Below are positions 36,146 through 37,824 of a stretch of DNA of 64,000 bases, one piece after another; within the stretch, counting starts at the first letter, position 1, and every line of letters begins with the position of its first letter. Below the pieces are notes generated by a model. It saw only the letters and a list, made by a program, of their open reading frames with translations, was not told the origin of the DNA and searched no databases. Made by a program: the position numbers and the translations under genes. This stretch comes from Escherichia coli (lineage in GTDB: Bacteria > Pseudomonadota > Gammaproteobacteria > Enterobacterales > Enterobacteriaceae), in the NCBI RefSeq assembly GCF_022846255.1, contig NZ_AP025682.1, one strand, 5' to 3'.

Positions 36146-37824
36146 ATGAATATAAAGACGCTTAACGTCAGCCTTTTGTCTATTTCTATTATTACAGCAT
36201 TGTTTCCGTTGAACGCGATGGCAACAAAATTAACCATAGAGCAGCGCCTTGAATTGCTTGAAAATGAATTGTCACAAAATAAACAAGAGCTGAAAGCAAC
36301 ACAGAATGAACTGGGAGTATATAAATTCCGACTTTCGACATTACAAAAAAGCATCACAGAAAATAAATATCAATCGGCCTCGCTTGCCGAAATATCAGCG
36401 ACATCTCCCGCTGCTGATAACATCAAAAATGAAAACGGTGAACAGAACTCGTCTGCCGCAGCACATACTATAAATGGATCGCAGCAAATTGCCGTTATTG
36501 AAAGTAAAGGCGATAAAACCACTATCGAAAGCGTGACCCTGAAAGATATCAGTAAATATATAAAGGATGATATTGGATTCAGCTATCAGGGGTACTTCCG
36601 CTCAGGCTGGGGCACCGGTAATCACGGCTCACCACAAACTTATGCAGCGGGTTCTCTGGGACGTTTTGGTAACGAGATGAGTGGTTGGTTTGACCTGACC
36701 TGACCTTAAATCAGCGTGTTTATAATCAGGACGGTAGAACGGCAAATGCGGTCGTTACCTATGATGGAAACGTAGGTCAGCAGTATAACGATGCCTGGTT
36801 TGGTGACAGTGCCAATGAAAATATCATGCAGTTCAGTGATATTTATCTGACAACGCGAGGTTTTTTACCCTTCGCACGAGAGGCAGAATTCTGGGTCGGC
36901 AAACATAAACTCCCGCAATATGAGATCCAAATGCTGGACTGGAAAACCTTAACCACGGATGTTGCCGCGGGTGTGGGGATTGAAAACTGGGCGCTTGGTG
37001 TAGGGCTGTTTGATATGTCCTTAAGCCGAGATGATGTCGATGTTTACTCTCGTGATTTTACGCGTACCAGTCAGATGAATACCAATTCTGTGGATGTTCG
37101 TTATCGCAATATCCCGTTATGGGATGATGCGACGTTGTCATTAATGGCTAAATATTCCGCACCTAATAAAACGGATCAACAACAAGATAATGAAAATGAC
37201 GACAGTTATTTTGAAATGAAAGATAGCTGGATGCTGACTTCTGTTTTACGGCAAAACTTGCAACGCGATACGTTTAATGAATTTACGTTACAGGTTGCCA
37301 ATAATTCCTATGCCAGCAGTTTTGCCAGTTTCTCAGATGCCAGTAATACGATGGCGCATGGTCGCTATTACTATGGTGACCATACCAATGGGATCGCCTG
37401 GCGTTTAATCTCTCAGGGCGAGATGTATCTGACTGACAATATTATTATGGCTAACGCGCTTGTCTATTCTCATGGCGAAGATGTTTATAGTTATGAAAGT
37501 GGCGCTCATAGTGATTTTGACAGTATTCGCACCGTAATAAGACCGGCCTGGATCTGGAATACATGGAATCAGACGGGGCTTGAATTAGGCTGGTTTAAGC
37601 AACAGAACAAAACTCAGCAGGGGGTAACGCTAAATGAATCGGCTTATAAAACGACACTCTGGCATGCATTGAAAGTGGGTGAAAGTATTTTAGGTTCACG
37701 ACCAGAAATTCGCTTCTACGGGACGTATATCAATATTCTGGATAACGAATTATCGAATTTTAAGTTTAATGAGAACAGCAAAGACGAGTTTATGGCCGGC
37801 ATCCAGGCGGAAGTCTGGTGGTAA
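36146..37824 (+). pseudogene. LamB/ScrY/BglH-family carbohydrate porin, frameshifted
   Basis: Two consecutive track ORFs (36146..36703 and 36826..37824) in frames differing by +1; first has signal peptide and coiled-coil N-terminal extension typical of ScrY/BglH; removing one TGACC unit at 36691-36705 restores one 557-codon frame with no stops. Confidence 0.75.
36691..36705 (+). repeat. (TGACC)x3 tandem pentanucleotide repeat causing the porin frameshift
   Basis: tgacctgacctgacc read directly; third unit creates in-frame TGA at 36701-36703. Confidence 0.7.

Follow-up and report, generated by a model that had tools for sequence, protein, structure and literature searches.

Gain of a TGACC unit, very probably by replication slippage, as the cause of a putative null porin allele in an accessory β-glucoside operon of Escherichia coli

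The porin gene of an accessory β-glucoside operon in the Escherichia coli genome studied here is very probably a null allele that arose through the slippage gain of one TGACC unit, and this is the best explanation for the two adjoining open reading frames (ORFs) into which the gene is split. The gene is located in a stretch of 64,000 nt of contig NZ_AP025682.1 (assembly GCF_022846255.1), which was analysed as a whole and is called the window below; all positions are counted from its first letter. Three tandem TGACC copies occupy positions 36691–36705 of the plus strand (TGACCTGACCTGACC), for which TRF reported a repeat with a period of 5, 3.2 copies and a 100% match; alignment to two-copy orthologues resolves this tract into the wild-type (TGACC)2 and one extra unit. 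The 5′ fragment of the porin pseudogene (36146–36703, plus strand, 185 codons), delineated by its ORF, by a match to Pfam Sugarporin_N and by a weak match to LamB, ends with the residues WFDLT, followed by TGA at 36701–36703 within the third copy of the repeat. This fragment encodes the signal peptide and the coiled-coil extension of the Sugarporin_N type; of the LamB barrel domain it retains roughly the initial 39 residues. The rest of the porin coding sequence (36706–37824, plus strand) is displaced by +2 and is open throughout in that frame; the ORF found there mechanically begins with the ATG at 36826 (36826–37824, 332 aa), and neither a signal peptide nor an obvious Shine-Dalgarno sequence was found for it.

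In silico removal of any single unit produces an ORF of 1674 nt, comprising 557 codons with no internal stops. A sequence-only reading of the same DNA had described three TGACC copies, the third of which makes the TGA stop, and a stop-free porin of 557 codons after the deletion of one unit; the sequence and TRF bear out the former, and the peptide reconstructed here matches the one given in that reading. The frames of the two ORFs had been said there to differ by +1, whereas the actual difference is +2 (equivalently, −1), the shift that results from an insertion of 5 nt. The normal gene reads TTT GAC CTG ACC TTA at this place, codons that contain two perfect tandem TGACC units. No other threefold pentanucleotide is present within the 64-kb window, and first-order Markov simulations of the window give an expectation of 0.07 such repeats per window.

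Comparison with relatives indicates that (TGACC)3 is a mutational event and not a coincidence. A search with a 121-nt probe centred on the repeat matched 2,517 records, where the best identity of 95.9% corresponded to the 5-nt gap alone, and the 116-nt two-unit footprint was present in all of the 100 matches listed out of these 2,517. Of the approximately 2,515 complete E. coli genomes in which the locus is present, none has the three-copy allele (no match reached 99% identity to the 121-nt probe); about 2,130 complete genomes contain exactly two TGACC units, and 2,084 records contain an exact match to the two-copy 41-mer. The same residues are specified by a minority allele, TGACTTAACC, which has no repeat. 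Identity bands had at one point been read as confining the two-copy repeat to B2-type alleles, with TGACTTAACC as the majority allele, and the exact 41-mer search showed the opposite. Among JGI metagenome contigs, the two-copy 24-mer was met 44 times and the three-copy 23-mer not once; species-representative genomes contained neither the two-copy nor the three-copy pattern and supplied no outgroup state. These counts show two units to be the normal state of the gene and three units to be a rare derived state, and the comparison with orthologues that had been proposed together with the sequence-only reading turned out as expected there, intact genes carrying two TGACC copies rather than three.

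The earlier reading had left the choice between a recent inactivating slipped-strand mutation and a sequencing or assembly error. The latter, under which the true genome would have two TGACC units and an intact porin, accords with the fact that no complete RefSeq E. coli genome searched has the three-copy allele; nevertheless, it is highly improbable, since the allele or its exact product has been reproduced in other data. The exact 185-aa product is on record as BDH33458.1 (strain TRECRb50, complete genome of 4.94 Mb) and GDA53744.1, and it is also present in the Logan assemblies of DRR322657, DRR322658 and DRR102846. Loci L004 and L005, assembled from DRR322657 (6.6 kb) and DRR102846 (5.2 kb), agree with the window at every position (100% identity), the three units included; the DRR322658 assembly has three units and one other indel, and three TGACC units are present in the draft genome GCA_005387665.1. 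This evidence consists of separate libraries and assemblies, compared at the assembly level, rather than of proven independent isolates, and TRECRb50, the DRR runs and GCA_005387665.1 may have a common single isolate as their source. Against the artefact, it can also be said that a clean gain of one 5-nt unit is not a typical platform error, that three-copy alleles exist on other haplotypes from unrelated projects, and that the window is almost free of other indels relative to its nearest relative: a comparison with strain A3, whose complete genome is the nearest one (99.2% identity), revealed five indels in 38.7 kb, and of these only the indel in the repeat disrupts a gene that the annotation of strain A3 gives as intact. 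The three-copy allele is therefore regarded, on the strength of these comparisons, as a genuine mutation, and of the two options left by the earlier reading the slipped-strand mutation is upheld by the two-copy orthologues, whereas the error is contradicted by the separate read sets and assemblies that repeat the allele. The mutation is also judged to be recent, because the restored porin gene is only two substitutions apart from a two-copy allele and the other genes of the operon are intact.

As to the mechanism, replication slippage (strand misalignment of the Streisinger type) at the two-unit repeat would have generated the third TGACC unit in the lineage of this strain; the slippage is deduced from the form of the change. 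The additional 5 bp shift the frame, the new unit itself provides the in-frame TGA, and translation would stop after residue 185. The resulting product of 185 residues would consist of the signal peptide, the coiled-coil and about 39 barrel residues, and would form no 18-strand barrel. With a truncated barrel and a downstream ORF that lacks a signal peptide, the allele is most likely null with respect to porin function; the inactivation by TGACC expansion proposed in the earlier reading is thus supported by the intact two-copy orthologues, the loss of function being deduced from the truncation. Transcriptional polarity on the glucosidase gene, which is situated 1.1 kb downstream of the premature stop, is possible as well. 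The allele should be revertible in principle, since the gene would be exactly restored if one unit were lost.

The two long ORFs, which lie in different frames and abut at the repeat, superficially resemble a recoding site, and a ribosomal frame shift programmed at the repeat might then still yield the full-length porin. This can hardly be credited. The (TGACC)3 tract generates TGA codons at 36691, 36696 and 36701, so every reading frame receives one, which makes translational bypass implausible; both frames are open together for 7 nt only (CCTGACC), an overlap with no slippery motif of the X XXY YYZ type; and nearly all orthologues are single-frame, so that a conserved two-frame arrangement was not found.

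Profile searches with the restored 557-aa protein clearly indicate its relationship to sugar porins. Residues 147–557 match the Pfam LamB family (PF02264) over the complete model (1–378 of 378, E = 4.9e-80), and residues 30–56 match Sugarporin_N (PF11471, E = 3.9e-7), in agreement with a precomputed hit. The restored porin thereby resembles ScrY, BglH and LamB in having a full-length LamB barrel domain together with the periplasmic coiled-coil extension of the Sugarporin_N type, and the earlier identification of the gene as that of a porin can be specified as a LamB-family porin with the N-terminal periplasmic extension that is typical of ScrY/BglH-like porins, according to Pfam. The porin of the window differs from these proteins in being truncated at residue 185; an intact exportable LamB barrel was not found in the window, and the gene is consequently classed as a pseudogene of the LamB family. 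The best NCBIfam matches of the restored porin are maltoporin models, at scores under the curated cut-offs (200 versus 394 bits), and a sequence search of solved structures with the restored porin gave no match at E ≤ 1e-3; these results argue that the restored protein represents a distinct subfamily of LamB-family sugar porins.

The other genes of the island are intact. A divergent gene for a GntR-family regulator (33107–33805, minus strand, 232 aa), a candidate bgcR, is followed on the plus strand by the genes for the PTS subunits IIB (34004–34315, 103 aa), IIC (34430–35752, 440 aa) and IIA, the last of the lactose/cellobiose family (35780–36091, 103 aa); downstream of the porin pseudogene lies the gene for a GH1 6-phospho-β-glucosidase (37848–39287, plus strand, 479 aa), a candidate bgcA with a ribosome-binding site of its own, AAGGAG. 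All these non-porin genes are full length in the window and show 0–2 amino-acid differences from a reference. The bgc operon, according to Neelakanta, Sankar and Schnetz in 2009, reportedly comprises bgcR and bgcEFI, a porin gene and bgcA. Cellobiose, arbutin and salicin are used by means of this operon at low temperature once its promoter has been activated. The gene content and order of the window island, with the divergent GntR regulator and then IIB, IIC, IIA, the porin and the phospho-β-glucosidase, coincide with those of bgc, a cryptic accessory β-glucoside operon of E. coli composed of genes for a GntR-type regulator, a PTS, a porin and a phospho-β-glucosidase (PMC3585215, PMC4488073). 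The island thus appears to match the published cryptic bgc operon and the porin would then be bgcH, an assignment that is based on gene content and order in comparison with these secondary descriptions (PMC3585215, PMC4488073); the window strain differs in that its porin gene is a pseudogene. The accessory island was found in 2,553 of the 5,426 complete E. coli genomes, where it is located between eamA and marB with the same gene order as in the window, and where the orthologue of the porin gene is annotated as an intact carbohydrate porin (1674 nt, 557 aa). In strain EC17CM2, the operon has a PTS IIC gene annotated as frameshifted (locus L002, 2332–3652) in a locus that is otherwise intact, which is a further indication that the operon is decaying.

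Several other features of the window were recorded in the course of the analysis. An Rfam search found the Hfq-binding small RNA STnc560 at 30352–30565 of the plus strand (281.9 bits), which is the sole RNA family match at the gathering level in the window; it lies on the strand opposite to the small genes mgtT and mgtS, as annotated in strain A3. Two compensating 1-bp indels relative to strain A3 are located within 9 nt of each other at 25199 and 25207, apparently in the intergenic region between ydfZ and rspR. At 51807–62904, tam and hipBA are separated in the window by the lsr (autoinducer-2) operon; in strain A3, which is the nearest complete genome over 13100–51807, tam is followed directly by hipBA. 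For 51807–62904, the best matches (98.3%) belong to different strains, a pattern suggestive of a mosaic region of the chromosome. Between lsrK and hipB, at 60570–62922, there is a degraded remnant of an autotransporter gene of the ECSE_1600 family, which is 5.4 kb long in strain 2014C-3075. The remnant has lost some 2.7 kb with the 5′ end as well as two further segments, and only ORFs of 128–257 aa are left.

The same gain of a TGACC unit was also found on other haplotypes. The 185-aa product was looked up on four other N-terminal haplotypes, and all four are present in the collection. Three units occur on the haplotype of loci L025–L027 (and in six more places beyond those listed). The porin gene of L025 differs from that of the window at 50 positions, with SNPs on both sides of the repeat (9 nt upstream, 35 nt downstream), and this divergence indicates an independent gain. 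Three units were also detected in loci L035–L037, which differ from the window at 10 positions in the gene and at 18 over 3.5 kb, every difference being more than 75 nt away from the repeat; since two-copy strains are at least as close to the window as this group, its allele is probably of independent origin as well. One-unit contraction alleles were looked for on five backgrounds and were not found, and no four-unit alleles were seen on the backgrounds examined.

The recurrence of the same gain of 5 bp on at least one clearly unrelated haplotype, and probably on a third, points to the TGACC site as a minor slippage hotspot resembling (CTGG)3 of lacI: the ancestral tract has at least two perfect units, the mutant tract differs from it by exactly one, and the change is repeated on independent backgrounds. 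The lacI hotspot was reportedly described by Farabaugh et al. in 1978. The (CTGG)3 tract is a hotspot of spontaneous frameshifts in E. coli that arise through the gain or loss of a unit (PMC12606429). The two cases have in common a short tandem repeat of 4–5 nt within a coding sequence, the gain of exactly one unit, a frameshift null and independent recurrence, and by analogy, reversion by unit loss should be possible in the porin gene; they differ in that the wild-type tract of the porin gene has two units, that its alleles come from natural populations rather than from a laboratory spectrum, and that only gains have been found. Contigs that end exactly at codon 185 had been considered as a sign of within-sample heterogeneity of the repeat, and this was rejected as an artefact of the protein look-up by exact length, which retrieves contigs ending there. 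Two other kinds of change at the same place were observed. In loci L042 and L053, one T is lost (TGACCTTAAAT to TGACCTAAAT) and a TAA stop directly follows codon 185; in L044 and L045, TTA is changed to TGA, giving TGACCTGACCTGA with a stop directly after codon 185. The substitution in L044 and L045 lengthens the repeat pattern by three bases and may have been templated by a misalignment.

Further nulls of the porin gene were traced through loci that share the 332-aa downstream ORF (L013–L022). They include W216* on two backgrounds, W181*, a 1-bp deletion at codon 205 and a deletion that fuses the IIB region to the 3′ part of the porin gene, with IIC, IIA and the 5′ portion of that gene lost. 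In strain YJR_complete (NZ_CM146016.1), an IS3-family element (L012, 3550–4830) interrupts the TGACCTGACC decamer, with a target duplication of CTG, at a site that corresponds to 36691–36700 of the window. Draft contigs in 43 blocks (protein P0003) break at the position of this insertion, where their sequence ends, and the IS3-family insertion would explain these breaks; P0003 (184 aa), once considered as another frameshift, is actually a contig-end fragment. The look-ups of nulls were biased towards this region of the porin, and the public collections are huge. The independent nulls fit a piecemeal decay of a dispensable, rarely expressed operon and do not demonstrate selection.

These findings also bear on whether the TGACC tract might be a selected, reversible ON/OFF switch of the porin operating at low frequency, e.g., against a phage or bacteriocin that uses the porin as a receptor; gains would then be repeatedly selected, and unit loss would restore the porin when the uptake of β-glucosides is needed. 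The gain of one unit arose independently at least twice, the loss of a unit from a three-unit tract should be easier than the reversion of an ordinary frameshift (judging from lacI), and other independent nulls exist, namely W181*, W216*, the 1-bp deletion, the IS3-family insertion and the upstream deletion; a few nulls in so large a number of public assemblies are, though, what can be expected of a dispensable gene. In classical contingency loci, the tract is far longer, and its copy number rises and falls freely. In Neisseria, the opa genes undergo phase variation through a pentanucleotide tract, CTCTT, and the porin gene resembles them in that the unit of five nucleotides lies within the coding sequence of an outer-membrane protein and that a unit gain turns the frame off; it differs in having 2–3 units instead of many and no spectrum of copy numbers in both directions. 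Two units were found in about 2,130 genomes and three in a few lineages, with no one- or four-unit alleles on five backgrounds, so that neither a long tract nor frequent two-way variation in copy number among strains was observed. Moreover, the two units are ordinary codons for the conserved residues D-L-T, which the minority allele TGACTTAACC encodes without a repeat. Phase variation is unlikely, given a tract of 2–3 units only and no two-way spectrum of copy numbers; were the switch real, it would be a rare case of repeat-mediated phase variation of an E. coli outer-membrane protein.

The slippage-derived null allele is, in our judgement, an ordinary pseudogene, produced by a known kind of event in an operon that has apparently already been described; what the comparison of haplotypes adds is that the same TGACC expansion recurs in natural lineages of E. 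coli. For annotation, this means that the two "hypothetical proteins" called at this locus in the source genome are the halves of one porin pseudogene. The recurrence provides a small natural-population example of a classical slippage hotspot, and it shows that a pentanucleotide repeat need have no more than two units to be a weak point of a coding sequence.
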